Source: Eggerthellaceae bacterium UBA3686
Lineage (GTDB): Bacteria; Actinomycetota; Coriobacteriia; Coriobacteriales; Eggerthellaceae
Assembly (NCBI GenBank): GCA_002371495.1
Contig: DFIX01000019.1
Span: 30,207 to 94,206 of the forward strand
Direction: 5' to 3'
Length of the DNA stretch: 64,000 nt
A program made the translations under genes and the position numbers. The notes under the pieces were generated by a model. It was not told where the DNA came from. It was given only the letters and a program-made list of their open reading frames with translations, and made no database searches. Positions 1 to 12,707 of this stretch are shown here, one piece after another. Positions within the stretch are counted from its first letter, which is position 1. Every line of letters begins with the position of its first letter.

Positions 1-1146
1 ATAGGCTGTCTTGGCAGTGCCGGCTGCGATCTTGCGAGCGAGCGCCGCCTCGCGCTGACGCATTGGCGCCACCACGGAATCGTCGATTGTCGCGCCCGAC
101 ATGAGCCTTGGCTTGGCACCGCGCAGTTCGTCACGCAGCTCGACTACGACGCCTTCCTGGTCGAGGGCGCGCTGGCAGACATGGCTGAGCGCATCGAGGA
201 CGAGCCCGAGCAAAGCCACGCGCTCGTCGAATTCCGCCTGTTTGGCACGCTCGACGATGTCGGGACCTGCTTCGCCCGACAGGATTCGCCCAATTTGGTA
301 GTCGGAACGATACTTCTCGAACAGGCTGTAGTAGACCGAGAACTTGTCGGCGATATCTTCGTCACGAAGGAACTGAGCGAACAATTCGCGGTCGCATTTC
401 TTGCCGAGCTGCTCGTAGAGCGTCACCACATCGGCCAAATCTTCCCAACCGCGCGCCGTAACGAAGCTCTTGCCGCCACCCGGCTTGGCCTCGACCAAGT
501 AGAAGCAGTCGGGCTTGGCTTCGAGGAAGGTCGTCACCGCAGGATGCAGGCCCTTTTCGGCAGCATAGCGCTTCCAAGCGTTGTAATCGGGTTCTACGTC
601 AATCTCGCGCAGGCGGTCGAGGGTCACGATGTCGAACTCGTGCACCGATTTGTTGTACTCAGGCGGGTTGCCAGCGCACACGATGACCCAATCTTCGGGG
701 ACCTTATGACGGCCGAATGTCTTGAACTGCAAAAACTGCAGCATGCTGGGATACAGCGTTTCGCTCACGCAATTGATTTCGTCTAAGAACAAGATGCCGC
801 TGCGCTCGCCCGAACGCTCCATATAGTCGTAGATGGCGCTTACGATTTCGCTCATCGTGTATTCCGAGGCCTCGTAGTCGAAGCCCTCGAAGCTGCGATG
901 CACGATACGAGGCAGGCCGAGCGCGCTTTGGCGGGTGTGATGCGTCATCGAATACGATACCACGCCGATTTCGAGCTCTTGGGCAATCTGCTCGATGATG
1001 GCAGTCTTGCCGATACCGGGCGCGCCCACCAAAAAAATCGGACGCTGGCGCGACGGGTCGATGACGTACATGCCCGCATCGTCTCGCTTCAGGTACGCCT
1101 CTACCGTGTCTTTGATCTGCTCTTTGGCTGCAGCGATATTCATCAT
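1..1146 (-). CDS. MoxR-like AAA+ ATPase (AAA_5 type); 3' end runs off the left window edge
   Basis: Absent from the ORF track because no stop lies in the window. The reverse complement from 1146 reads ATG ATG AAT ATC ... = MMNIAAAKEQIKDTVEAYLKRDD.... Hand translation gives Walker A IFLVGAPGIGKTA (around 1005-1038) and Walker B GILFLDEIN. It starts 24 nt downstream of the VWA gene stop on the same strand. Confidence 0.8.
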   Translation of the reverse strand, partial: MMNIAAAKEQIKDTVEAYLKRDDAGMYVIDPSRQRPIFLVGAPGIGKTAIIEQIAQELEIGVVSYSMTHHTRQSALGLPRIVHRSFEGFDYEASEYTMSEIVSAIYDYMERSGERSGILFLDEINCVSETLYPSMLQFLQFKTFGRHKVPEDWVIVCAGNPPEYNKSVHEFDIVTLDRLREIDVEPDYNAWKRYAAEKGLHPAVTTFLEAKPDCFYLVEAKPGGGKSFVTARGWEDLADVVTLYEQLGKKCDRELFAQFLRDEDIADKFSVYYSLFEKYRSDYQIGRILSGEAGPDIVERAKQAEFDERVALLGLVLDALSHVCQRALDQEGVVVELRDELRGAKPRLMSGATIDDSVVAPMRQREAALARKIAAGTAKTAY

Positions 1147-1170
1147 GGTACTGATTGCCCTTTCCCGTTG

Positions 1171-2838
1171 TTACATCCTGCTCGCAAACTTGTTTATGCC
1201 CTCTTCGTCGATGACCACCTTCATCGCCCACGGTGGCACCGATGGCGTATGCGCCTCGCCCGTGTCCATGAACACGAACGCCGTATCGTAATCGGGCGCG
1301 GCCTCTGGGTACTGCCCCAGACCGTCGGTGAAGTAGATAAGCCCCTTCATGTCGGTCAGCTCGCCGCGCTTGCGCAGGCTGTCCACGTAGCCGAACACCG
1401 GGCGAAAGTCGGTCCCGCCCATACCCCGCACGAAGAAGCCGTCCATGAATGCGTCGACATCGGCCAAATCGGTTATCTTCGTATCCGCCTGCACCTTCGC
1501 ATCACATTGAATCACGTGTATGTTGACCGAATGCGCGAAGTCCTCCTGCTTCTTGATTATGCCGAAGGTATGCTCGACAAAGCGCTTCACAAGCTCGCCC
1601 TTGCACGATTCAGACGTATCGATGGCGATGACGAAATCGCGGATGCGCTGCGTCTCTTTGTACTCGAGCGGCTCGACGAGCGGCATGTCGCCGTATAGTT
1701 CGAGACCGTAGGTGTAAAAGACGTAGTCGTACTCGTCGTCGTTGATCTTCATCTCTTCCGAGAGCATGGTGAAGCGTCTGAGAAAATCGGCGTAATCGTA
1801 GCGCTTGCGGTTCGCCACTTTCAGGCTGGCTATGAGCGAGCCCGCCTCGTCCCCCCATTCGGCCGAGAACGTCTCGAGGTTCATCTCGACCTGCTTGGCG
1901 ATTTCTTCCCAATCGCGCTCTTCTTCTGACTTCTGATCGTTGACTTCGCGCTCGTTGTCCTGGGTGTTCGACGAACCGTGCCAGTCACCCGAAACGTTGT
2001 CTTCGGCATCGTCGCCCTCGGCGGTATCTTGCGCATCGGCCGACGAACCCTCGGCGTCTTGGCTCTCGTCGCTCGACTCCTCGCCCTCGTTGTTCTGCAT
2101 CTCCTCGACGTCCTGCTCGGCGGCTTCCGCATCGCCGTCGGCCAGCATTTCGCGCATCTGGTCCTCGGGAGCATCGCCCTCGGCGTCGTCGTCCTGCTGC
2201 GCGAGCTCCTCGACCTCGCCTGGAACCTCTTCGGCCTGACCTTTCGAATACGACGGCCACGCCTCGTGGTTGTCGCGCTCGAAAAGCGCCATGTACTCGG
2301 TGAACTTGTCTTGCGTAAGCCCCAGGTACGTAGTGCCCTGCGGCGCCGTGAGCGCTTTCAGGAACAGCTGGTACAGAGACCCGGGTGCGATTTTGCCACA
2401 CATGAGGCTCAGCTCCGAGAGCGCTCCCCGACGGCTCTTGTCGAGCTCGCTCTCGAAGCGGCCGGCGCACAGCTCCATCGCCACGCTCTCGGCTACGACA
2501 TCACAGGCAAGCCACCAGGCGTCGTGTCGGGGATGATTTTCGTCGAAGGGATGCCTGAAGATGCAGTGCATCACCAAATGCAGGTAGTCTCGCACCTGCT
2601 CGTCGAACGATTCCTCGAAGCGCCCGACTACGGCATAGGGTTCGAAGTACACCTTCTTGCCGTCGGTCGCCATCGGGTAGCGCCCCTGCACATGTACCGC
2701 TTCGGATGGCATGCGCCAAAGCGCCAGGTCAAGGAAACGAAACTTCAACATGAGCGAAACGCGCGATTCCTCGATGATCTCGAGTGCGACCTTTTCGGCC
2801 TGAAGCCAGCGCTGTTGCTTTTCGTCTAGTTGGACCAT
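1171..2838 (-). CDS. VWA-domain protein of the DUF2201 type: N-terminal metallopeptidase-like domain, acidic linker, C-terminal VWA domain
   Basis: 555-aa ORF. MIDAS motif DTSES (FVIAIDTSESC), followed by GGTDF and YFTDG. The N-domain motif LHLVMHCIFRH sits where this family usually has HExxH. A D/E-rich linker of about 125 aa spans roughly 1881-2256. ATG at 2838 lies 9 nt after the LRR gene stop. Confidence 0.8.
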   Translation of the reverse strand: MVQLDEKQQRWLQAEKVALEIIEESRVSLMLKFRFLDLALWRMPSEAVHVQGRYPMATDGKKVYFEPYAVVGRFEESFDEQVRDYLHLVMHCIFRHPFDENHPRHDAWWLACDVVAESVAMELCAGRFESELDKSRRGALSELSLMCGKIAPGSLYQLFLKALTAPQGTTYLGLTQDKFTEYMALFERDNHEAWPSYSKGQAEEVPGEVEELAQQDDDAEGDAPEDQMREMLADGDAEAAEQDVEEMQNNEGEESSDESQDAEGSSADAQDTAEGDDAEDNVSGDWHGSSNTQDNEREVNDQKSEEERDWEEIAKQVEMNLETFSAEWGDEAGSLIASLKVANRKRYDYADFLRRFTMLSEEMKINDDEYDYVFYTYGLELYGDMPLVEPLEYKETQRIRDFVIAIDTSESCKGELVKRFVEHTFGIIKKQEDFAHSVNIHVIQCDAKVQADTKITDLADVDAFMDGFFVRGMGGTDFRPVFGYVDSLRKRGELTDMKGLIYFTDGLGQYPEAAPDYDTAFVFMDTGEAHTPSVPPWAMKVVIDEEGINKFASRM

Positions 2839-2847
2839 GTCTTAATC

Positions 2848-5130
2848 CTACAAATCGAAGTCGAATGCAGCACGGCCGAAGCGGGTGCGTTTCAGCTCGA
2901 GCAGATAGCCGCTCATGGCGGCATCCTGCAACCCGCTTACTGCAACGATAACCGTCTCGATATTATCAGCGTTCAGGTACCCGAAATCGGCAAGGGCTCC
3001 CATAAGGGCGCGATCGTCATGACGCGCCGTGTCAACGCAGATCTCGACTGCATGTTCGCGCAAGGTCCGCTCGAAAAGCGACCGGTTGACGCCTGTCAGC
3101 AAAATGGGGTCTTTGAAGCGCTCGACAATTAACCGAGCCTGCTCGTAGGCCGTCACGCCATCGCCTTTGCGAGCAGTGTAATCATGGGCGTTTGCCAGGC
3201 AGTTGTCGAAGTGCTTCATCATATCGGGCACGTTCACCCAACTCGACCCGCCGAGCGCCAAGCTGATCTCATGAATCGACCGGGCCGTGTCGGGAAACCT
3301 GAACTCGAAGACGGTCCTCCCCTCGAGCGGTTTTTTCAATTCGACCTTGATATGCTCGATGAAAGACCATGTAAGGAGCCCCGACGAACCGATGGTCTTG
3401 AGATTGGGCCCTAGATAAATTGACTTGATGTTACGGCAGTTGCTGAAAGCATACGATTCGATGTGCTTCACGCGCTCGGGTATGGCGACGTCTTCTACCG
3501 AATTGTCGAACAGAATCGCTCGATCGCCGTCCTCGCCCCGCTCGCACAGGATACCCGATTCAACGTAAAAGCGCGTATTAGCCGGGTCAGCAGAGATCTT
3601 CGCAATCGAGGGCGGCTCGACCAGGCGATGTGCACCTGCGGTGACAAATGCGTCGGCTCCTATGCTCTGCAGGGCAGCCGGAATGAAGAGCTCGGTCAGC
3701 GACGAGTCAATAAATGCCTCTTTGCCAATAGCCCTCAACGTCGACGGAAAGGTGACCGAGCGCAGCTTTCTGCAGACCCTGAAAGCGCTGTCGCCAATCT
3801 GCTCGACGCCTTCCGGAACCTCGACTTCCTCTATCGTTTCGTGAAATGCGAAAGCATACGATTCAACGACATGCGTCCCATCAACAATCTTGAACGCAGC
3901 GACAGTCGGATCAATCAGCTGCACGAATCGCAAGTATTCACCGTCTTGTTTGTAGAGTCCACCGTTTCCATCGTAGAAATACAGCGGGTTCTGGCTCGAT
4001 ACCGCAAACGTTGCACCTTCGCCCGTGTATACAACGTTGGTGTTCTGAACGATGCAGTTCCCTATAAAGCGCACCGAAGCAGGCACCACAATTCCTTCGA
4101 GCCCCGAACCGGCAAATGCATAGGCGGCGATACTCTCTAGGCCCGCGTTCAACGTAACGTGAGAAAGCTCCTTGCAATGAAAAAACGAGCGCTCACCAAT
4201 GGTCTTAAGCGAACATCCGCATTCGAGCCTCTTCAAGCCGGTATGCGCGAACGCGTAGTCTTCGAGCACCTCCAAAGAGTCAGGCATTACCACCTGTTCG
4301 AGTTTCAGGACGCCCATACACGCTTTCTTCGCGACCCGCTTGCATCCATTTTGAATTATCAATTTCTTGACCGGACGGGCAAGCGCTATGAGGGTCTTTC
4401 CGTCTTTTGCGTAAAGCGCATCGCCATCGCAATCGATAAATGGATTGTCAGCAGCTACCTCAATGACCTTGAGCTGTGTCTTTTCAAATGCGCCCGGGAG
4501 CACGTTCTTTACGTTTTTGCCGATGATTAGCGTCTGCAAAGAGGGATTCTCGAATACTTCGCCGGTAATCTTCTCGAGCATGCCGGGCAATACGATGGTC
4601 TTGATCTTTGGACACTGCGACAGCCACGTGGCCGAGAATTCGACGACGTCTTTCGGAAAACGGACGTACTCGAGATTCTCATTCATCCTAAAGGCGCACA
4701 GCCCGATTGTTTTAACGCTGTCAGGACATATTATTCGCCGCACCGACCCAAGCTCCGCACATGCATCAGCGCTAATAGCATACACAGGCAGGCCTTCGAT
4801 GCTGCTAGGAATCTCGAGCGTCTCTTCAGCTGTCCTGCAACGCGTGATTCTGACCATGCTTTGGTCGACGATTCTGTAAGTCCATACCGTCTTATCGCCA
4901 CAAGAATAGGTATACGGCTTTGACGAGCGCGCATATTCGAGGTCTCGCAGCCGCTTTGCTTCAGCTTGCTTGCGCTTATACTCGATTTCCATGCGTTCAA
5001 GCTGCTCTTTCGAAGCAGTCACTCCGTCCATTGCGGTCGGCGAAAAACCACCGAACGTAACAGCCAATGTTGCTATCGCAGAAACGCCATCGCCTATAGC
5101 CAAAATACCCTCGCTATAATCGTTAAGCAA
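2848..5130 (-). CDS. BspA-type leucine-rich-repeat protein with no recognisable signal peptide and a helical C-terminal domain
   Basis: 760-aa ORF with repeated ~23-aa LRR_5-like units (e.g. VEVPEGVEQIGDSAFRVCRKLRSVTFPSTLRAIGKEAF). An N-terminal coiled-coil-like stretch reads KEQLERMEIEYKRKQAEAKRL. The track start is TTG and the true start is uncertain. Sample lines are only 47-50% GC. Confidence 0.75.
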   Translation of the reverse strand: MLNDYSEGILAIGDGVSAIATLAVTFGGFSPTAMDGVTASKEQLERMEIEYKRKQAEAKRLRDLEYARSSKPYTYSCGDKTVWTYRIVDQSMVRITRCRTAEETLEIPSSIEGLPVYAISADACAELGSVRRIICPDSVKTIGLCAFRMNENLEYVRFPKDVVEFSATWLSQCPKIKTIVLPGMLEKITGEVFENPSLQTLIIGKNVKNVLPGAFEKTQLKVIEVAADNPFIDCDGDALYAKDGKTLIALARPVKKLIIQNGCKRVAKKACMGVLKLEQVVMPDSLEVLEDYAFAHTGLKRLECGCSLKTIGERSFFHCKELSHVTLNAGLESIAAYAFAGSGLEGIVVPASVRFIGNCIVQNTNVVYTGEGATFAVSSQNPLYFYDGNGGLYKQDGEYLRFVQLIDPTVAAFKIVDGTHVVESYAFAFHETIEEVEVPEGVEQIGDSAFRVCRKLRSVTFPSTLRAIGKEAFIDSSLTELFIPAALQSIGADAFVTAGAHRLVEPPSIAKISADPANTRFYVESGILCERGEDGDRAILFDNSVEDVAIPERVKHIESYAFSNCRNIKSIYLGPNLKTIGSSGLLTWSFIEHIKVELKKPLEGRTVFEFRFPDTARSIHEISLALGGSSWVNVPDMMKHFDNCLANAHDYTARKGDGVTAYEQARLIVERFKDPILLTGVNRSLFERTLREHAVEICVDTARHDDRALMGALADFGYLNADNIETVIVAVSGLQDAAMSGYLLELKRTRFGRAAFDFDL

Positions 5131-5226
5131 ATATGAAATGCATTTACCAGAAAGATTTTGACCCGAGATTCCACTCGGGTCATTATGCAGTTCGTATGTA
5201 CAAGATTAAACCGTGAGAAACACTCG

Positions 5227-5550
5227 TTACTTGCGCAATCTACCAGCTGAGTCAAATTTACGTCGCGGTTCGATTTCATCACCGTAGATGATGCAGTAGC
5301 GCGTGCCCTTTAGAGTAACAATAAGGCTCGCCACGACCGGGGCACCCTCGTTACCGTGGTCGTAAACCTGGTACGTCAGCAGCTCTCGATCGAACATCTC
5401 TTGATACACTGGGTTATTCTCAATCTTGCTCAGCAGCACGTTTGTGGGTTCGCGACCGAGCTCGTCCTGCCGAAGGGCAATGTTATACAGAATGTTTTCC
5501 TGCTCTTCCGAAAGACGTCCTTCAGCCCTGATTTCCTCTTCTGTAGCCAT
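5227..5550 (-). CDS. hypothetical 107-aa protein
   Basis: ATG preceded by GGAAGGTG about 12 nt upstream. No motif recognised. It lies 96 nt upstream of the LRR gene on the same strand, in the same lower-GC stretch. Confidence 0.5.
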   Translation of the reverse strand: MATEEEIRAEGRLSEEQENILYNIALRQDELGREPTNVLLSKIENNPVYQEMFDRELLTYQVYDHGNEGAPVVASLIVTLKGTRYCIIYGDEIEPRRKFDSAGRLRK

Positions 5551-5636: not shown

Positions 5637-5664
5637 AAAAAAGGGGGCGGCCTAAGCCGCCCCC
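5637..5664 (-). terminator. Rho-independent terminator closing the Mo-enzyme operon
   Basis: Minus strand reads GGGGGCGGC-TTAG-GCCGCCCCC followed by TTTTTT, 28 nt after the stop of the 93-aa gene. Confidence 0.75.
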
Positions 5665-5691: not shown

Positions 5692-5973
5692 CTACCAAGG
5701 AACCTCGCGGCCCTTGAACTCATGCGGATCCCCGCGCCAGCCGTCGCCTTCCTGAGCATACTCGTTGCCAGAACGCTTCGTGCTGGTGTAACCAGACCAT
5801 GCGCGGGCCATGAACTTGTCCTTGACCCAGAAGATGTTCTGCTTCATCAGCTCAGCAGCGTCGAGCTCATACTCAGCCAGAGCCTCATCCTTGGACTTTC
5901 CAGCAGCAACAGCCTCATTCAGAAGCTTAGCAATCTCGCTGTTGTCAAGCGCCAAAAGCTCTTCACGATCCAT
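5692..5973 (-). CDS. hypothetical 93-aa protein; third gene of the Mo-enzyme operon
   Basis: ORF MDREELLALDNSEIAKLLNEAVAAG...GDGWRGDPHEFKGREVPW. It lies 65 nt downstream of the 119-aa gene and is followed by a strong terminator. No cysteines and no recognised family. Confidence 0.55.
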   Translation of the reverse strand: MDREELLALDNSEIAKLLNEAVAAGKSKDEALAEYELDAAELMKQNIFWVKDKFMARAWSGYTSTKRSGNEYAQEGDGWRGDPHEFKGREVPW

Positions 5974-6038: not shown

Positions 6039-6398
6039 TTAGAGACGGAACAGAACGGTCGGGCGATCAAATTCCTGCATCTTTGCGAACATCTCGTCAA
6101 GAGTGCCATAGTACATAGATGCGGACTCTTCAACCTGGACAGCAACCGGACGCTGACCAGCCTTGTCGCCGCCAGCTCCCCAGTGCTCAGAGAAGATGGA
6201 CGTCGGGCAAGGAATGTAGAACCATTCCCAAGCGTCGCCCGTGTCACCCTCGCCCTTGCGGAAGGGGCCGACCTGGACTTCCTTGATACCAAACTGCTCG
6301 AGCGGGAGACCCAGTTCTTCCTTGCAGGCAATCTCTGCTGCGTGATTGCCGGAGAAGTAAGTGTAGTCAACGAGCAGGCCGTATTGAGTGTCTGCCAT
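6039..6398 (-). CDS. degenerate, cysteine-depleted ferredoxin-like small subunit of the molybdopterin enzyme
   Basis: 119 aa with only 2 Cys. The N-terminus QYGLLVDYTYFSGNHAAEIACKEE aligns by eye with the canonical beta-subunit start QYGxVIDxxxCIGCxxCxxACKxEN. The C-terminal PVAVQVEESASMYYGTLDE aligns with PACVxxCPxxAxxFGDxxD. It starts 19 nt after the large-subunit stop. Confidence 0.6.
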   Translation of the reverse strand: MADTQYGLLVDYTYFSGNHAAEIACKEELGLPLEQFGIKEVQVGPFRKGEGDTGDAWEWFYIPCPTSIFSEHWGAGGDKAGQRPVAVQVEESASMYYGTLDEMFAKMQEFDRPTVLFRL

Positions 6399-6417: not shown

Positions 6418-8757
6418 TTAGTCCTCGTCGAGGCTGCGGACGCGCTTCATGTTGCACATGACACCCTTGTAGGGAGCGCCGAAGCCAAGCTTGCCGATGT
6501 TCTGGTGCGGGACCAGCGAGTTGAAGTTGGACTTCCACACGCCGAACAGGTTGGGCTCTTCGCCGTCCTGCTCGGGGTACCACCAACCATGAGCGCAGTT
6601 GATGATGCCGGGCTTCAGAACAGGAGTAATCTCTGCCTTGAAGCGAGCCTCGCCGAACATGTTGTAAACCTCGACCCAGTCGCCCTCGGTGATGCCATAT
6701 TCCTTGGCGGTCTCGGGCGGAATCTGGACCCATGCCCACGGGTCGATCTGACGCAGGGACGGAACCTGACGATGCTCGGAGTGGAAGGAGCTGTAACGAC
6801 GAGAACCGGAGGTGGAGATCAGCGGATAAGCCTCGGCGTCCTGCGGACGGCTGACCTGCGAGTAGTTCGGCTCCTCGTAGTAAGGCAGCGGATCCTCGCC
6901 CCAAGAGGCGTAGAGGATGGAGTTAGCCTCGATCTGGCCGGTGATGGTGTTGAAGCCAGGCTCGCCGTCGAAGCGGAGCAGGCCCTTCTCGTACTTCTTG
7001 TACTCGAAGCCATGAGCACCAGGCTGATACAGACCCTCTTCACGGAGGTCGTTGAAGTCCATGTTCAGCTCAGCAAGCTGATCGCTGAAGAACTTGTCGA
7101 CGGCCTTGTCGAGCTCGGTACGGTCGATGGCAGCGCCATCCTTGTCGCCCGGCATCCACTCGGGATCGAGCCACGGCCACCAAGACGGATTCAGCTTGGA
7201 ACCGAACATCAGGCAGATCTCGATGTCGGACATGCACTCGCCGACCTGCAGGGCCTTGTTCATCGGGCCCATGAACACGGTGTTGCGGCCATAGTGGGTG
7301 AGGACGATGCCGTCATGCTCAGCCCAAGTGGCCATCGGGAGGAAGTAATCGCCAACAGCCATGGCCGTCGGGGTCATCCAGAGGTCCTGGATTACGCAGA
7401 ACTCGATGGACTCGAGCAGCGCCTTGTGCCAACGCTTCGGCTGAGCCGAGCAGGTCGGCGCCAGGAAGTTGGAGCTGTTGAACCAGGCCATACGCAGCTG
7501 ATACGGCTGCTTGGTCTCCATGGTGTTCAGCGTCTCGTCGGGCTGGGTGGTAGCCATGCCGGTGGACAGGCCAGGCCACTGGGCAGCGCCGATACGCTTC
7601 TGCCAAACCTCGTCGTCCATAGCGCCACGCTGCTCCATGCGCCACTTGCCGAGCAGAGCAGACGGAGGACCGAGGGTCAGGCCACCAGGCGAGTCGATCG
7701 AGCCAGCCAGAGCGGCCAGGAGGATCATTGCCTGGGACAGCTGAACGCCGTTCTTGTTCTGGTCAAATGCGAGGCCCCAAGCCCAGCCGATCGGGCGCTC
7801 GGTGCCGATGATATGAGCGACCTTCTCGATGGTCTCGACGGAAACCGTCGTGATCTCGGAGACCTTCTCGACCGGATACTCAGCGGCGCGCTCTTTGAGC
7901 TCGTCGATGCCGAAGATCCAGTTCTCGGCCATCTCATGATCGTACTCGTCGTTCTGGAACATGAGGTTCATAACGCCGAGGGCGAAAGCGGTGTCGGTCT
8001 GCGGACGGACCTGAACATTGATGTTGCCATCATGAGCGCCAACCCAGGTAACACGCGGGTCAACGGAGATGATGTGGGTGCCACGCTTCATCATGTCGAC
8101 GAGGCAGTGACCGAAGAAACCGTCGCCGTTGGAAGGCAGCGGCTCCTTGCCCCAAACAACAACCCACTTGGAAAGCGTGTAACGCGGGTCGTCATAGGAG
8201 CCAGGCAGGTGGCCTGCATAGTCGAGCTCGGGGTAGCCAGCGCCGAGGACATAGTCGGCGATGGAGCAACGAGGACCGTAGCAAGACCAACCAGACTGCG
8301 TGTAGCAGCAGTTCGGCGACTTCAGAACGGAGAACGTCAGAGCATAGTAGTAAATGCATGCCTCACGGCCGGTGCCGCCGAAGCAAACGATGGACTCGGG
8401 GCCGCCATTAGCGGGATCCCAGTAGTAACGAACCTTCTCGACGATGGTCTCGAGGCACTCGTCCCAAGAGGTGCGCTCCCACTTGTCTTTACCACGATCC
8501 TCAACCGCACGCTTCATCGGGTAGATGATGCGGTCAGGATGATGGGTGTACTCACGCAGAGCGAGGTTCAAGGCGTTAACACGGCCCGTGGTGATCGGGT
8601 TGTTATCGTCACCCTCGATACGGATCAGCTTGCCATCCTTGGTGACCACCTTGACGCCGTATCCTACGGGGTGAGATCCCGGAGGAGACCAAGTGTTGGA
8701 ACGGGTGACGATAGTACCGTCGGGCATTTCGGTACGCCACTCCTTGGAATAAGCCAT
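6418..8757 (-). CDS. molybdopterin (bis-MGD) oxidoreductase-family catalytic subunit, acetylene-hydratase / pyrogallol-transhydroxylase / catechol-dehydroxylase-like, cytoplasmic
   Basis: 779 aa from ATG 8757, with AAGGAG 8 nt upstream; the track ORF extends to 8793. Typical family blocks are present: KDGKLIRIEGD, HPDRIIYPMKR, VDPRVTW, and a C-terminal molybdopterin-binding block GDWVEVYN...KPGIINCAHGWW. There is no RR leader and no Cys in the FS0 region. Confidence 0.9.
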   Translation of the reverse strand: MAYSKEWRTEMPDGTIVTRSNTWSPPGSHPVGYGVKVVTKDGKLIRIEGDDNNPITTGRVNALNLALREYTHHPDRIIYPMKRAVEDRGKDKWERTSWDECLETIVEKVRYYWDPANGGPESIVCFGGTGREACIYYYALTFSVLKSPNCCYTQSGWSCYGPRCSIADYVLGAGYPELDYAGHLPGSYDDPRYTLSKWVVVWGKEPLPSNGDGFFGHCLVDMMKRGTHIISVDPRVTWVGAHDGNINVQVRPQTDTAFALGVMNLMFQNDEYDHEMAENWIFGIDELKERAAEYPVEKVSEITTVSVETIEKVAHIIGTERPIGWAWGLAFDQNKNGVQLSQAMILLAALAGSIDSPGGLTLGPPSALLGKWRMEQRGAMDDEVWQKRIGAAQWPGLSTGMATTQPDETLNTMETKQPYQLRMAWFNSSNFLAPTCSAQPKRWHKALLESIEFCVIQDLWMTPTAMAVGDYFLPMATWAEHDGIVLTHYGRNTVFMGPMNKALQVGECMSDIEICLMFGSKLNPSWWPWLDPEWMPGDKDGAAIDRTELDKAVDKFFSDQLAELNMDFNDLREEGLYQPGAHGFEYKKYEKGLLRFDGEPGFNTITGQIEANSILYASWGEDPLPYYEEPNYSQVSRPQDAEAYPLISTSGSRRYSSFHSEHRQVPSLRQIDPWAWVQIPPETAKEYGITEGDWVEVYNMFGEARFKAEITPVLKPGIINCAHGWWYPEQDGEEPNLFGVWKSNFNSLVPHQNIGKLGFGAPYKGVMCNMKRVRSLDED

Positions 8758-9150
8758 ACTGTTACTCCTTTTCTCGTTTACCCTCGGAAACAAAGAGACT
8801 TATACGCCGCGACCTTACGGTTGCATCGCTCTGATCGAACCCGATTAGAATCGGCTCTAGGGGTAAGCCAGCACCTTTCGGATACGTCAGACAGCTAATC
8901 GATTTACCTTACCCTCCCGTTTGCTCGCACCAATCGGCAAGTGGCTGGAATGGTGTTTGCATATTTGGCCAGGTAAATGACGAGCAGCCGAAATTCCTCT
9001 TCGCTTCCCTTTTAATACTGCTGGTACCACTCGCAATCTCATTGGTTTCATCTGGGGCAATGAGCGTAGTAATACCAACGTGCCTATTCTAGCAGCATTG
9101 TGAATCTTGGCAAGCAACGTATTTGCTGATGCCTTAATCTATTTTCAGAA

Positions 9151-9162
9151 TATAAGTGAACA
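9151..9162 (-). promoter_or_regulatory. TGTTCACTTATA element upstream of the Mo-enzyme operon (candidate -10 region or operator)
   Basis: Minus strand reads aaTGTTCACTTATAttc. A near-identical TGTTCACACTTATA occurs on the plus strand at 10606-10619, upstream of the MFS gene. Confidence 0.35.
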
Positions 9163-9213
9163 TTGCACAGTTCGTGCCGTTTTATGACAATTCGTTGCCT
9201 CGATGATATAGAA

Positions 9214-9239
9214 CGGGCCACCTCTGTTGAGGCGGCCCG
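9214..9239 (-). terminator. hairpin downstream of the FKBP gene
   Basis: Minus strand reads CGGGCCGCCTC-AACA-GAGGTGGCCCG followed by TTCTATAT, a weak U tract. Confidence 0.5.
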
Positions 9240-9263
9240 ACATCCTGGTATTTGCAGCTGTAT

Positions 9264-9749
9264 TTATAAGCCGTATTGCGCGGCGAATTCGCTGCCGTCG
9301 TGCTTCACGGGCGGCTTCCAATCACCCTCGGGCTCTTCAACCGAAAGGATTTCGACCTCGAAGGTGAGGTTCTTGCCCGCCAGAGGGTGGTTCATGTCGA
9401 ATGTGACTTCCTTCTCGGTGATGTTTTTAATGGTGACGGGGAACTTCTCGCCGTCGTCACCCGTCATCCAGATGCGCATGCCGATTTCGATGTTCTTCAG
9501 CGGCACCTGCTCGACCGGAACGGCCTCGAGCAACCCGTCGAGGTATTCGCCGTAGCCGTCGTATTCGTTGAGGGTGAACGTCTTCTTCTCGCCGGCCTCC
9601 ATGGTCATGATCTCGCGCTCGAAACCGGGGATGGTCAGATCCATGCCGGTCTGGAACTCCATGGGCTGTTCGGTCTTTGCATAACCGAATACGGTGCCAT
9701 CGTCGAGGGTGCCCGTGTACAGCAGTCGGACAGTCGAGCCAAGTTTCAT
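9264..9749 (-). CDS. FKBP-type peptidyl-prolyl cis-trans isomerase, SlyD-like (FKBP domain with IF-flap insert)
   Basis: 161 aa. Starts VRLLYTGTLDDGTVF and ends ...FDMNHPLAGKNLTFEVEILSVEE, the typical SlyD-type architecture. No His-rich tail. Confidence 0.85.
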   Translation of the reverse strand: MKLGSTVRLLYTGTLDDGTVFGYAKTEQPMEFQTGMDLTIPGFEREIMTMEAGEKKTFTLNEYDGYGEYLDGLLEAVPVEQVPLKNIEIGMRIWMTGDDGEKFPVTIKNITEKEVTFDMNHPLAGKNLTFEVEILSVEEPEGDWKPPVKHDGSEFAAQYGL

Positions 9750-10078
9750 CGTGTCGTCTCCTTCTATTTAATAGCCAATGAGCATACGCTAGCTTAGGCG
9801 AAATCGAACCGATTGTCCATGCAACAAAAAAGGCCGCGATGCGACCTAATAGTCCGGTGGGGTCGAAAGCAAAGCATTCGACCCCACAAAGGACTTACTA
9901 CTATGCGCAACTTTCGTCGCATTTGCACCTTAAGGCAAGTGCTGCCTCGATCTGGCCAGATCATTTTGTGCTCGTCAGTGGATGCCCGCTACATCCGCCC
10001 CTACCAAATGGCTAGGTACCCTGACGAACAGCCAAGTGTTCCCCTATAAGCACCTGACTTGCACTCGAAATACCGAGC

Positions 10079-10333
10079 TTACGCGCCGGGGGCCTTGGGG
10101 GCGCCGGGGGCCTTGGGGGCGCCAGGAGCGCCGGGGGCCTTGGGGGCGCCAGGAGCGCCAGCTGCAGGAGCCGCGCCGGGCAGAGGCTTCTCGCCGTTCA
10201 GGTACGGGGTGAAGTCTTCCTTGCAGAACGGGCACTTGTCAAGCGTAATGCCCGCCATCATCTGGATGGGCTTCCCGCATCCAGGGCACTTCATCGGGCC
10301 GCCGCCGCCAGCATCAGATGGTCTAAAGCACAT
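10079..10333 (-). CDS. small zinc-ribbon protein with a C-terminal (A/G)PGAPK repeat tail
   Basis: 84 aa. ATG at 10333 has AAGGAGG 7 nt upstream. CPGCG...CPFC forms a four-Cys ribbon. The tail reads GAAPAAGAPGAPKAPGAPGAPKAPGAPKAPGA. Confidence 0.6.
   Translation of the reverse strand: MCFRPSDAGGGGPMKCPGCGKPIQMMAGITLDKCPFCKEDFTPYLNGEKPLPGAAPAAGAPGAPKAPGAPGAPKAPGAPKAPGA
10083..10160. repeat. imperfect 18/27-nt tandem repeat encoding the PGAPK tail
   Basis: GCGCCGGGGGCCTTGGGG occurs at 10083-10100 and 10101-10118. A 27-nt variant with a GCGCCAGGA insertion follows. Confidence 0.8.
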
Positions 10334-10568
10334 AAGATTCCTCCTTCATCGGATTTGCTCGAACGAAAAAGACATCGCTCGGGCCTTACTGCGCCACGCG
10401 CCCTGCCCCATTCCAGAGCGTTATGACTTGCTCACATTATAATCAACTTGCAACTATTTTTGCGCGGAACTTTCGCCCCTGTCGGTCAGATGAACGCCAA
10501 AGGCGCCCGAAACCATGCCTTGCTGAGGTTTCGAAGCCTCTGCCCTAGCGGCGTTTGCGCCTACTATA

Positions 10569-10619
10569 TATAAGTGTAAAGCGTGCTCAGAAATTAATTA
10601 ACTCGTGTTCACACTTATA
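10569..10619 (+). promoter_or_regulatory. AT-rich inverted repeat (TATAAGTGT ... ACACTTATA) upstream of the MFS gene; candidate operator or promoter
   Basis: Perfect 9-bp arms at 10569-10577 and 10611-10619 flank an AATTAATT centre. This is the only strongly AT-rich patch in this intergenic region. Confidence 0.35.
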
Positions 10620-10985
10620 GTACGAGCAGCGGCTCTCTGTGTTATTATGCTCTGATGTAGGTTTCGTGAGCGAATGCCTACAAATGAGCGCTTGGCTTAG
10701 GGGTGAAGATTCATCAGGCCTTGCGCATCGTAGAAAGAGAATCGTAGAAAGGAGGATCCCTGCAGTCGTTTCTTCCGTCCCATCGCTTCCACGCGGCGGG
10801 TCCGCTGTTTAGGGGACAGCTTGAATACGGAGGCGTCCGTAAGTCATGAATGCGAATGCGTCCGTGATTTCCCGCCCGCAAGCGCGCAGACGGTATTGCC
10901 ACTGCAGTGAGAGCTGAGGCTCACGGCTTCAAATCAATTGGGGATAGAAGCCGCTTACTTGAATAATCCTTTAAAGGAGGGATTG

Positions 10986-12707
10986 ATGGATAACAAAGAG
11001 TTTACCGTCTCTGAGGTTATCGACTCATTCGGTATCAACGGTCATACCTGGCTGATGTTCATCCTGCTGGGCCTGGCAAACATCTTCGACGGTTATGACT
11101 TCATGGTCATTAACGTCACGAACAGCTACGTCGCAGCCACGTTCTGGCCCGACGCTTTCGCGCTGAACGACGCTGGCAAGATGGCTCTTCAGCCGCAGTA
11201 CTCGGCCCTCATGGGCTCGCTGACCACCTGGGGCCTGCTGGGCATGGTGCTCGGCGGTGCTACCGGCGGCATCCTCTCTGACCGCATTGGTCGTAAGAAG
11301 ATGCTGACCATCGCCGTTCTGTTCTACGGCGTGTTCACCCTGCCGCAGGCGTTCGCTAACGACGTGTACTTCTTCGCAGCGTTCCGTCTGATCGCCGGCT
11401 TCGGCGTCGGCTCCTGCATCCCGGTTGTTACGACCTGCTTCTCTGAGACCATCCCGTCTCAGCACCGTGGCGTGTTCGTGACCTTCGGCATGGCCTTCAT
11501 GGTCGCCGGCTGGGTGCTCGCAGGCCTGATCGGCAACCCGATTGCTTCGAACACCGCTTCGATCATCCCTGGCTTCACCGATGGTGCCATCAAGACCGCA
11601 GCTTCCCTGCGTCCTGACGGAACCGAGGTCATCTTCTGCCAGAACTGGCGCCTTTGCTACCTGATCGGCGCTCTGCCCATCGTGTACGGCATTGCCCTGT
11701 TCTTCCTGATGCATGAAACTCCGCACTGGTACGCCAACAGTGGCCAGAAGGAGAAGGCTTGCCAGGCTCTTATGGACATCGCCCATAAGCATCATGACGA
11801 CAAGGCTCATTACGACGCCAACCTGCTCGTCGTTCCTCCGAAACCTGCAAACGTCGGCCCGAACGTACTGTTCTCCAAGAAGTACATCGTCGCTACCGCT
11901 GCTATTTGGTGCACCTACTTCGTGGGCCAGTTCTGCGTGTACGGCATGAACGCTTGGATTCCGACCTGGTTCCAGGGCGTTGGCTACTCTGCAGCTGACT
12001 CCACGAACCTGCAGACTTGGAACAACTTCGCAGCTATCCTTTCGAACGTGTCCGTAGGCTTCGTCTCTGACCGCATCGGCCGTAAGAAGAACCTCGCCGC
12101 GTCCTGGATTGCCTGCATCGTCGCCATCGTTCTGTGCTCGATGTTCGTCCAGCCCAACAACATGGTGCTGTGCGTCATCCTGATGCTGCTGTTCGGCTTC
12201 TGCCTGAACTACGCCATCACGGCTGTCCAGCCGCTGATGCCCGAGAGCTATCCGACCGCCCTGCGTAACACCGGCGTCGCTTGGTGCCAGGCGTTCGCTC
12301 GCTTCGGTGGTTCCGGCTCCTCCATCGTCCTCGGCGCAATCGCTGGTTCTGCTATGTTCCAGACCGACGGTGCCACCAACTGGTCGATGGTCGTGCTCGT
12401 CCTCATCGTTCCGTTCATCCTCGGCTTCATCTGCACGATCCTGTTCGTGCGCGAGACCGGCGGCAAGACGATGGACCAGCTGGCTGCAGAAGCAACGACC
12501 GAAGACAAGTCCGATACTGGTCAGACTCAGTTCATCATCATGATGATCGTGGCTGCCATCCTCTTCGTCCTCTGCATCGTTTGCCCGCTCGTGGTTAACG
12601 GTTGGTCGAAGAGCCCGATGGCTCTGCCGCTGATGACCATCGGCATGCTGCTCCCGTTCGTCTACTTCTTCATCTTCGCAACTCCGCAGATCAAGAACTC
12701 CAAGTAG
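10986..12707 (+). CDS. MFS transporter, aromatic-acid/H+ symporter-like, with an extra C-terminal membrane module
   Basis: ATG 10986 is preceded by AAAGGAGGG. Duplicated motif A: SDRIGRKKMLT and SDRIGRKKNLA. After the usual end (RETGGKTMDQL) come about 70 further residues with two hydrophobic segments. Confidence 0.9.
   Translation: MDNKEFTVSEVIDSFGINGHTWLMFILLGLANIFDGYDFMVINVTNSYVAATFWPDAFALNDAGKMALQPQYSALMGSLTTWGLLGMVLGGATGGILSDRIGRKKMLTIAVLFYGVFTLPQAFANDVYFFAAFRLIAGFGVGSCIPVVTTCFSETIPSQHRGVFVTFGMAFMVAGWVLAGLIGNPIASNTASIIPGFTDGAIKTAASLRPDGTEVIFCQNWRLCYLIGALPIVYGIALFFLMHETPHWYANSGQKEKACQALMDIAHKHHDDKAHYDANLLVVPPKPANVGPNVLFSKKYIVATAAIWCTYFVGQFCVYGMNAWIPTWFQGVGYSAADSTNLQTWNNFAAILSNVSVGFVSDRIGRKKNLAASWIACIVAIVLCSMFVQPNNMVLCVILMLLFGFCLNYAITAVQPLMPESYPTALRNTGVAWCQAFARFGGSGSSIVLGAIAGSAMFQTDGATNWSMVVLVLIVPFILGFICTILFVRETGGKTMDQLAAEATTEDKSDTGQTQFIIMMIVAAILFVLCIVCPLVVNGWSKSPMALPLMTIGMLLPFVYFFIFATPQIKNSK

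Follow-up and report, generated by a model that had tools for sequence, protein, structure and literature searches.

Several AAA+ rings, namely those of CbbQ/CbbO, NorQ/NorD, CoxD/CoxE, RavA/ViaA, Rea1/Midasin and BchI/BchD, are coupled to a von Willebrand factor type A (VWA) protein or domain whose metal ion-dependent adhesion site (MIDAS) grips an acidic residue of the target. Of the chaperone-like systems, the MoxR-type AAA+/VWA pairs belong to those that are least understood, and most of their clients are unknown. Four classes of MoxR-vWA ternary systems have been described, the third component of which is VMAP, an inactive STAND, FtsH or a beta-propeller (Kaur, Burroughs, Iyer and Aravind 2020, eLife, PMC7159879), and a pair of a MoxR AAA+ and a metallopeptidase-vWA protein (DUF2201_N + DUF2201) in group 2.2 jumbo phages was proposed to act as chaperone and cochaperone aiding virion assembly (Iyer et al. 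2021, Viruses, PMC7824862). Here, a stretch of 64,000 nt from the chromosome of Eggerthellaceae bacterium UBA3686 (contig DFIX01000019.1, positions 30,207 to 94,206; G000:C38:30207-94206), referred to as the window, was analysed with regard to the four minus-strand open reading frames (ORFs) within positions 1-5550. These encode a MoxR-type AAA+ ATPase, a VWA protein, a BspA-type leucine-rich repeat (LRR) protein and a protein of 107 aa (N107). All positions are window coordinates unless a locus identifier is given. The locus is read as one copy of a conserved cytoplasmic, ATP-driven machine for protein remodelling or assembly with LRR proteins as specificity subunits, an explanation that is given about an even chance of being correct. 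In the literature searched, no paper was found that relates DUF2201, COG3864, BspA or LRR_5 to MoxR or VWA in such a way, and the triad of LRR, VWA and AAA+ genes apparently represents a widespread cytoplasmic machine of Eggerthellaceae and Clostridia from the gut that has not been described.

The conservation of the triad was analysed by a scan for homologues of the VWA protein in one genome per species; genes of the related loci were called with a simple rule that takes the longest ORF, so that some of their starts are approximate. The scan yielded 80 loci, about half of them from Coriobacteriia and the rest from Oscillospiraceae, Lachnospiraceae and other Clostridia. Among the 49 loci with full flanks, an LRR gene was found next to the VWA gene in 44, an AAA+ gene in 48 and both in 43. 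The gene order is LRR-VWA-AAA in Coriobacteriia, and the orders VWA-LRR-AAA and VWA-AAA-LRR as well as multi-LRR arrangements such as LRR-VWA-LRR-LRR-AAA were observed in Clostridia. The linkage is kept despite reordering across two phyla, which speaks for the genes being a functional unit. A preliminary description of this DNA, made from the letters of the sequence, had proposed a module with an unusual intracellular LRR partner and had named chance adjacency as the alternative; the survey refutes the latter, and the conserved linkage bears out both the module and its apparently undescribed third component. The genome of UBA3686 contains three LRR-VWA-AAA triads (C38, which lies in the window, C25 and C28) and a fourth locus with a VWA-AAA pair (C48). 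At least one copy was present in 44 of 66 good-quality Eggerthellaceae genomes (41 of 64 genera), with one to five copies each. The module is common yet dispensable and would serve an accessory rather than a universal function.

The VWA protein was assigned to DUF2201 (PF09967) with 43.3 bits at a cut-off of 26.4. Its N-terminal domain scored 16.3 bits with DUF2201_N (PF13203), which is under the cut-off of 23.2, while the C28 paralogue is over it with 42.2 bits, and the domain of the C38 protein appears to be homologous to DUF2201_N but divergent. The motif HLVMH had been noted at the position of HExxH, which we take to be the motif of the DUF2201_N family. This observation was confirmed for aa 87-91, and the loss of the glutamate proved to be family-wide: H87 and H91 are present in all 86 family members aligned, C92 in 85 and H96 in 82, while position 88 is most commonly occupied by L, M, V, A or C and by Glu in none of the 86. 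W108, C112 and D113 are also near-invariant. The N-domain is predicted to be a zincin-like fold with possible metal ligands and without the catalytic base, and the absence of Glu from HxxxH in the entire family makes peptidolytic processing unlikely. The MIDAS was found to be intact, as had been described, and each of its five residues (D407, S409, S411, T476 and D505) is present in 86 of 86 members. The D/E-rich linker of about 125 aa was likewise confirmed (aa 195-320), and neither its length nor its sequence is constant among paralogues and orthologues. Selenocysteine in the VWA protein was ruled out, the in-frame TGA flags being natural stop codons.

The gene for the AAA+ ATPase extends 1,197 nt past the start of the window (full gene L006:6804-9146, on G000:C38) and encodes 780 aa. 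Its description as a MoxR AAA+ ATPase is supported by AAA_5 scores of 37.3 bits for the part in the window and 35.2 bits for the full protein (cut-off 22); what had been missed, with the ORF truncated at the window edge, is the fusion to a methyltransferase. The AAA+ core has a length of about 500-540 aa and includes a large conserved C-terminal region without family assignment. In 81 homologues, conservation is at least 97% for Walker A (G41-P-G-I-G-K47-T48), Walker B (D122/E123), N160, R178, R232 and the long YSMTHHTRQSALGLP block; N160, R178 and R232 would correspond to sensor 1, the arginine finger and sensor 2, respectively. Identity to the Clostridial homologues is 43-49%. With the bpMoxR family (PF20030) the C38 ATPase scored 23.3 and 21.0 bits, below the gathering cut-off of 27 bits, and the C25 AAA paralogue reached 30.1 bits, above it. 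To judge from these scores, the C38 ATPase appears to be related to the bpMoxR family without being a clear member. A close solved relative was not found in the PDB, where matches to ClpB and Midasin were at the level of the P-loop only, and the sequence and profile search of the VWA protein against the PDB found nothing; sequence-level similarity to solved MoxR/VWA members is therefore restricted to the P-loop of the ATPase.

A class I S-adenosylmethionine (SAM)-methyltransferase-like domain is located in the C-terminal part of the ATPase (aa 578-713; Methyltransf_31, 62.5 bits). Of 49 AAA genes of the Coriobacteriia type, 37 carry the methyltransferase as a fusion to the motor, and none of the Clostridial AAA genes does; in the C28-type operon it is encoded by a separate downstream gene (L008:4133-4846; E-value of 4e-59 to the fused domain). 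ArsM and UbiE are the nearest families, and the best sequence matches are to ArsM structures (E-value of about 1e-14) and to NF008823 (72.8 bits). An identity as ArsM was ruled out by this score, the cut-off being 263, and by the cysteines that are conserved in the ArsM-like paralogue of the same genome (at the NCV and GC positions and in the N-terminal cluster), which are N/S or absent here. The triad-linked methyltransferases (L006:6807-7469, minus strand; L008:4133-4846, minus strand) carry VLD(V/I)xCRRG(K/R)G as motif I instead of the usual GxGxG. A conserved KMTL motif was observed upstream of motif I.

The LRR protein matches LRR_5 with 220.8 bits in four stretches (cut-off 27.7), and the solenoid, at about aa 86-575 in the numbering of the 760-aa ORF, is followed by a C-terminal helical domain. 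The length of 760 aa given at first holds for the ORF (2848-5130), but translation probably starts at the TTG at 5103, which yields 751 aa; this start is favoured by a GAGGG 4 nt upstream of it, by orthologues that start with MAIGDGV and by public calls of 751-752 aa. The N-terminus carries a conserved FGGF(S/T)P motif followed by a coiled-coil-like stretch. A signal peptide, transmembrane segment or anchor was found in none of the 81 linked LRR proteins, as judged from the n-region and the hydrophobicity without a dedicated predictor, and moving the start to 5103 made no signal peptide apparent. With a KD19 of 1.72, the N-terminus of the C38 protein is moderately hydrophobic; it has an Asp and no basic n-region, and this hydrophobicity is not kept in the orthologues, whereas FGGF(S/T)P is. 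The Clostridial partners begin directly at the first repeat. With the NCBIfam model for HupY the C38 protein scored 124 bits at a cut-off of 1250. All three features ascribed to the protein at the outset, the absence of a signal peptide, the N-terminal coiled coil and the unassigned helical C-domain, were thus found again.

For the C-terminal domain a confident AlphaFold2 (AF2) model was obtained (predicted local distance difference test (pLDDT) 87.4, predicted template modelling score (pTM) 0.83), and the search of the PDB with the domain gave no match (best E-value 0.85). A profile of the domain detected 627 representative clusters among 1.84 billion proteins, and in nearly all of the best 150 matches listed the match lies at or a few residues from the protein C-terminus. 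The profile also matches the Clostridial LRR partners, and conservation among the Eggerthellaceae orthologues is highest in the last 100 residues of the protein. A tag was recognised in the last approximately 30 residues, consisting of a helix with the motif (A/T)xYLLE(x)K(R/N), a short spacer and an acidic-hydrophobic end (DFDL, DYEL, DKYAL, EFEL). Among the Coriobacteriia-type partners the helix motif is present in 49 of 51 and the acidic-hydrophobic end in 50 of 51. Both features occur together in 14 of 30 Clostridia-type partners, compared with 1% of 488 background ORFs. The 318-aa partner encoded at the fourth locus of UBA3686 ends in the tag-like ...AAELLRERQARSATLDFLAF, with an E-value of 0.079 in the hhalign comparison, which is not significant.

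N107 had been regarded as an orphan encoded 96 nt upstream of the LRR gene. The distance is correct, but the gene is not an orphan. In 26 public loci it is conserved as a gene of its own immediately upstream of the LRR gene, with a mean column identity of 54% in 23 sequences, and in the C25 paralogue (56% identity over 104 aa) and L020 the N107 part is joined to the N-terminus of the LRR protein as a fusion. A read-through or split gene of N107 and LRR was considered and rejected: the two ORFs are in the same frame, but are separated by two TAA stops and 96 nt, and they are distinct genes in 26 loci. The two-gene arrangement is genuine and the fusion is the rarer state. Searches of Pfam and NCBIfam gave no match for N107. 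A confident predicted structure was obtained (pLDDT 87.3), with top structural matches that are all winged-helix, PadR/LmrR-like and weak (best E-value 0.015, TM 0.50). The protein is acidic, with a median isoelectric point of 4.8, and the helix in the recognition position has a net charge of -2, which argues against DNA binding; N107 is more plausibly a protein-binding subunit than a DNA-binding regulator.

The proposed machine would operate as follows. The AAA+ ATPase would form a ring, like MoxR-type AAA+ proteins, and the VWA protein would couple this ring to the LRR partner, with the N-domain, the acidic linker or both contacting the ring. The MIDAS of the VWA protein would grip an acidic residue, for which the flexible C-terminal DF(D/E)L tail of the LRR partner is the best candidate by analogy with Rea1/Midasin and Rsa4/Ytm1, with CbbQ/CbbO (CbbO and Rubisco) and with integrin I-domains. 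The LRR solenoid would select the client protein, and ATP hydrolysis would then pull on the LRR partner together with whatever the solenoid holds, or release the client. Eggerthellaceae add the fused or separate methyltransferase, N107, a trigger factor (Tig)-like protein in one paralogue type and often a nearby radical SAM gene, and these additions suggest maturation or covalent modification of the client protein. A more far-reaching proposal, put forward tentatively and with a clearly smaller chance of being right, is that the triad forms a fifth MoxR-vWA ternary class of a plug-in type, in which interchangeable tagged repeat proteins, mostly of LRR_5, would insert their tail into the MIDAS, so that they or whatever they bind would reach the AAA+ motor; in Eggerthellaceae, this motor with its covalently attached divergent methyltransferase would constitute, with N107 and the trigger-factor-derived protein, a client-modifying chaperone complex without a characterised counterpart. 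The Eggerthellaceae-specific additions and the hypothesis of an acidic tail in the MIDAS are new here. The coordinates of the features are given in Table 1.

Table 1. Features of the N107-LRR-VWA-AAA unit and its surroundings in window coordinates
Feature	Position	Strand	Basis or remark
AAA+ ATPase part, N-terminal 382 aa of 780	1..1146	-	Pfam AAA_5; ORF reaches the window edge
VWA adaptor, 555 aa: pseudo-zincin N-domain (DUF2201_N-like), acidic linker, C-terminal VWA domain with MIDAS	1171..2838	-	Pfam DUF2201
HLVMH, aa 87-91, catalytic Glu replaced; followed by near-invariant C92 and H96	2566..2580	-	Alignment, 86 members
D/E-rich linker, aa 195-320	1879..2256	-	46 D/E against 6 K/R
MIDAS motif DTSES (D407, S409, S411); site completed by T476 and D505	1606..1620	-	86/86
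BspA-type LRR protein, 751 aa from TTG at 5103	2848..5103 (open to 5130)	-	LRR_5; orthologue starts
C-terminal domain of the LRR protein, 185 aa: beta-hairpin and eight helices, ending in the tag ...YLLELKRTRFGRAAFDFDL	2851..3405	-	AF2
Hairpin with 9-bp stem and weak T-tract, interval between N107 and LRR genes	5159..5182	-	Pattern match only
N107, acidic protein of 107 aa, winged-helix-like	5227..5550	-	First gene of the unit
Strong intrinsic-terminator-like hairpin: 9 G-C pairs followed by TTTTTT	5643..5664	-	Pattern match only

The intergenic gaps between the four ORFs are 24, 9 and 96 nt, so that the close packing of three minus-strand genes reported before agrees with the coordinates. Two hairpins were detected by pattern matching. 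The one at 5643-5664 is predicted to close the upstream transcription unit of a molybdenum (Mo) enzyme and to mark the 5′ boundary of the N107-LRR-VWA-AAA unit, and the one at 5159-5182 is possibly a partial terminator or an attenuator; attenuation at this site might leave N107 in excess over the LRR protein. The genes at 5692-5973 and 6039-6398 (minus strand) are on the Mo-enzyme side of the terminator. The former encodes a 93-aa protein without family match that is conserved, with lengths of 91-113 aa, in the interval between a ferredoxin relic and N107 in 15 loci.

The preliminary description had also concluded that a cassette of low G+C content (GC) was acquired, and this conclusion did not hold. 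The GC is 59.3% for the AAA-methyltransferase gene, 59.4% for the VWA gene, 53.3% for the LRR gene and 50.9% for N107, compared with 59.5% for the genome and 56-60% for the neighbouring genes, to which 67-70% had been assigned from sample lines. Only the LRR and N107 genes are low. The LRR gene is at the 3.7th percentile of 2-kb windows by GC, and the paralogous LRR genes have 60-61%. The nearest relatives (L015-L018) show an equal dip in the LRR and N107 genes, and N107 is a few GC points below its neighbours in nearly all genomes. The context of Mo enzyme, ferredoxin relic, 91-aa gene, N107-LRR-VWA-AAA-methyltransferase and, further on, tig is conserved in many Eggerthellaceae genera. Gene-level GC and synteny speak against a recent horizontal acquisition of the cassette, and within the lineage the LRR and N107 genes may have been exchanged or have drifted. 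Integrases and transposases were not found near the syntenic loci. Genuine copies in phages or plasmids were not found either, the matches there being distant only (for real phages, Bacillus phage G and Thermus phage phiFa). A phage origin was also rejected with respect to the 'Bacteriophage sp.' matches, which are unverified faecal contigs, the 15-kb one being bacterial by gene content. This contig (L093; MT835935.1, 'UNVERIFIED: Bacteriophage sp.', 15,126 bp) carries an LRR-VWA-AAA triad and is a piece of a bacterial chromosome; its other genes encode an ABC exporter, a radical SAM protein, a NUDIX protein, an M18 aminopeptidase, DegV, a Mur-ligase-family protein and an aminotransferase. The remaining MT83xxxx matches from phage collections are probably similar contamination.

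Further genes recur near the triad. In C28-type operons of four genomes, the AAA gene is immediately followed, on the same strand, by a Tig-like gene encoding 279-281 aa. The 281-aa protein matches model positions 106-287 of TIGR00115 with 69.7 bits (cut-off 180.2; E-value 2e-19), lacks the N-terminal ribosome-binding domain and has no match in Pfam. In several genera, a full-length tig gene and then an FKBP gene follow the AAA-methyltransferase gene. A radical SAM gene (421-459 aa) is present near the triad in nine loci at varying positions; at the C38 locus it is L006:3934-5199. Three loci from metagenome-assembled genomes of Coriobacteriales (L012, L024 and L059) show the arrangement N107, radical SAM (423-448 aa), LRR, LRR, VWA and AAA-methyltransferase, in which both LRR proteins are tagged. 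A 297-aa membrane protein of the sporulation-type family SpoVAC/SpoVAEB (Pfam E-value 1e-8) is encoded 549 nt downstream of the AAA-methyltransferase gene (L006:5362-6255, minus strand); the Coriobacteriia are, to our knowledge, a non-sporulating class.

The fourth locus of UBA3686 (C48, L009:5600-17390) contains the VWA-AAA pair (8623-11500) with the 318-aa all-helical partner (7658-8614) in place of an LRR protein. The same cluster encodes an ArsS-type radical SAM protein (TIGR04167, 378 bits), DJ-1, Y_phosphatase3, a nucleoside-hydrolase-like protein and an ArsM-like methyltransferase (256 bits, cut-off 263); immediately after the gene of the latter comes that of a 301-aa LRR_5 protein without tag. 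The cluster may represent an organo-arsenic or selenium-type pathway linked to the machine.

Several points weigh against a remodelling machine with LRR specificity subunits. The docking of the tail into the MIDAS rests on analogy, and client and physical interactions are putative. The acidic-hydrophobic end is missing in 11 of the 30 Clostridial LRR partners, both tag features being present in only the 14 mentioned. Binding of SAM by the methyltransferase is not assured, given the atypical motif I (D-x-C-C-R-R-G-K-G), and tig next to C38-type loci could be plain synteny. The remaining two points also suit a conflict or immune surveillance system, in which the diversifying LRR protein would sense phage or plasmid proteins, the AAA+/VWA pair would act as ATP-dependent threshold switch and the methyltransferase or an unlinked factor as effector. 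The LRR proteins are far more divergent than their partners, with identities of 34-49%, compared with 50-74% for VWA and 58-76% for AAA (relative to L015, identity is highest for N107 and AAA with 76% and 75%, is 69% for VWA and is far lowest for LRR with 48%), and the module is patchy, with several paralogues per genome and presence in only 44 of the 66 genomes. Such a system is further favoured by an architecture that parallels the VMAP, iSTAND, FtsH and beta-propeller ternary systems (PMC7159879), by the score of the C25 AAA paralogue above the bpMoxR cut-off and by the low GC of the LRR and N107 genes. It is nevertheless judged to be rather improbable, although a serious alternative, since nucleases, TIR, SIR2, caspases and pore formers are absent from the triads examined and the peptidase-like domain is without Glu throughout the family. 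Apart from the methyltransferase, no effector domain was found with Pfam, NCBIfam and PADLOC in the components and their neighbours in UBA3686. The VWA, LRR and N107 proteins had no match among the PADLOC-DB v2 models, and the AAA-methyltransferase had generic matches only (mad2 with the methyltransferase domain, E-value 9e-12; IetA with the P-loop, E-value 4e-5). Stable synteny among metabolic and housekeeping genes of many genera without nearby integrases or transposases, and zero copies in verified phages or plasmids, also speak against conflict, and the trigger-factor-like neighbours fit protein maturation better.

It is unlikely that the tagged LRR proteins and the 318-aa helical protein are instead substrates that are folded, assembled or disassembled, for example as a cytoplasmic scaffold, and modified by the methyltransferase. 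A constant C-terminal tag on variable bodies resembles a degron or an assembly handle, some operons contain two to three LRR genes in tandem, and MoxR-vWA pairs assemble tail proteins of archaeal viruses, as has been proposed for jumbo phages (PMC7824862). LRR solenoids, however, are usually binding modules, most loci have one LRR gene per motor/adaptor pair and there is no sign of polymerisation, even though the present data do not separate substrates from adaptors. Lower still is the probability of a dedicated maturation factor for the neighbouring molybdopterin enzymes, in the manner of CoxD/CoxE or NorQ/NorD. In its favour, metalloenzymes are known to be matured by MoxR/VWA pairs, many genera have the C38-type locus immediately downstream of an Hcdh-like Mo-enzyme operon, and three of the four loci of UBA3686 are within 12 kb of a Mo-enzyme gene. 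With 31 Mo-enzyme genes in 2.8 Mb, however, the estimated chance of three in four is about 0.06 and not significant, the strong terminator separates the Mo-enzyme unit from the N107-LRR-VWA-AAA unit, and L093, one of two Clostridial contexts annotated, has only housekeeping neighbours; near the cluster of the L073 type (L070, L073, L078) there is an ORF that by eye resembles an aldehyde or xanthine oxidase. An ordinary secreted BspA-type surface adhesin that is adjacent by chance is practically out of the question: LRR_5 is best known from surface proteins and the C38 N-terminus is moderately hydrophobic, but this stretch contains an Asp, has no basic n-region and is not conserved in its hydrophobicity, none of the 81 proteins has a leader or anchor, and the presence of the triad in 43 of 49 loci across two phyla refutes this explanation.

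If the LRR proteins are specificity subunits, the AAA+/VWA pair studied here brings with it a rapidly evolving subunit dedicated to specificity and a docking tag that can be recognised. Two thirds of the sampled Eggerthellaceae genomes have the module, in up to five copies, as do many Clostridia of gut and rumen. It offers a route to the targets of such machines in gut anaerobes of high abundance, among them the Eggerthellaceae that metabolise drugs and polyphenols. Should the surveillance explanation be true instead, bacteria would have an ATPase-coupled LRR sensor in the cytoplasm, which would parallel the eukaryotic NLRs in concept while being composed of other parts.

Compared with known systems, the triad shares the LRR_5 repeat type of its LRR partner with BspA-type surface proteins such as the HupY/LrrG adhesins, but differs from them in that the LRR protein is cytoplasmic, carries a helical tag, is co-encoded with an ATPase and a VWA protein and is without a wall anchor. 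The acidic linker ahead of the VWA/MIDAS domain is a feature common to the triad adaptor, Midasin and BchD; in contrast to the pairs of the CbbQ/CbbO type, which are two-component systems with a known enzyme client, the triad has three components. As in the jumbo-phage pair, an adaptor with a zincin-like N-domain and a VWA-like C-domain is encoded beside a MoxR-type ATPase, whereas the Glu of HExxH is absent throughout the triad family, an LRR partner is added and the genes are cellular. A parallel in overall composition is given by the MoxR-vWA ternary systems, in which a MoxR-type AAA+ and a vWA/MIDAS protein are likewise obligatorily co-encoded with a more variable third component, often a repeat or scaffold protein. 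The triad is distinguished from them by a cytoplasmic LRR_5 protein with its own C-terminal tag as third component, by the pseudo-zincin N-domain of its vWA protein, by the absence of effector domains and peptidase cascades, and by its occurrence in unicellular gut anaerobes in a chromosomal housekeeping context.

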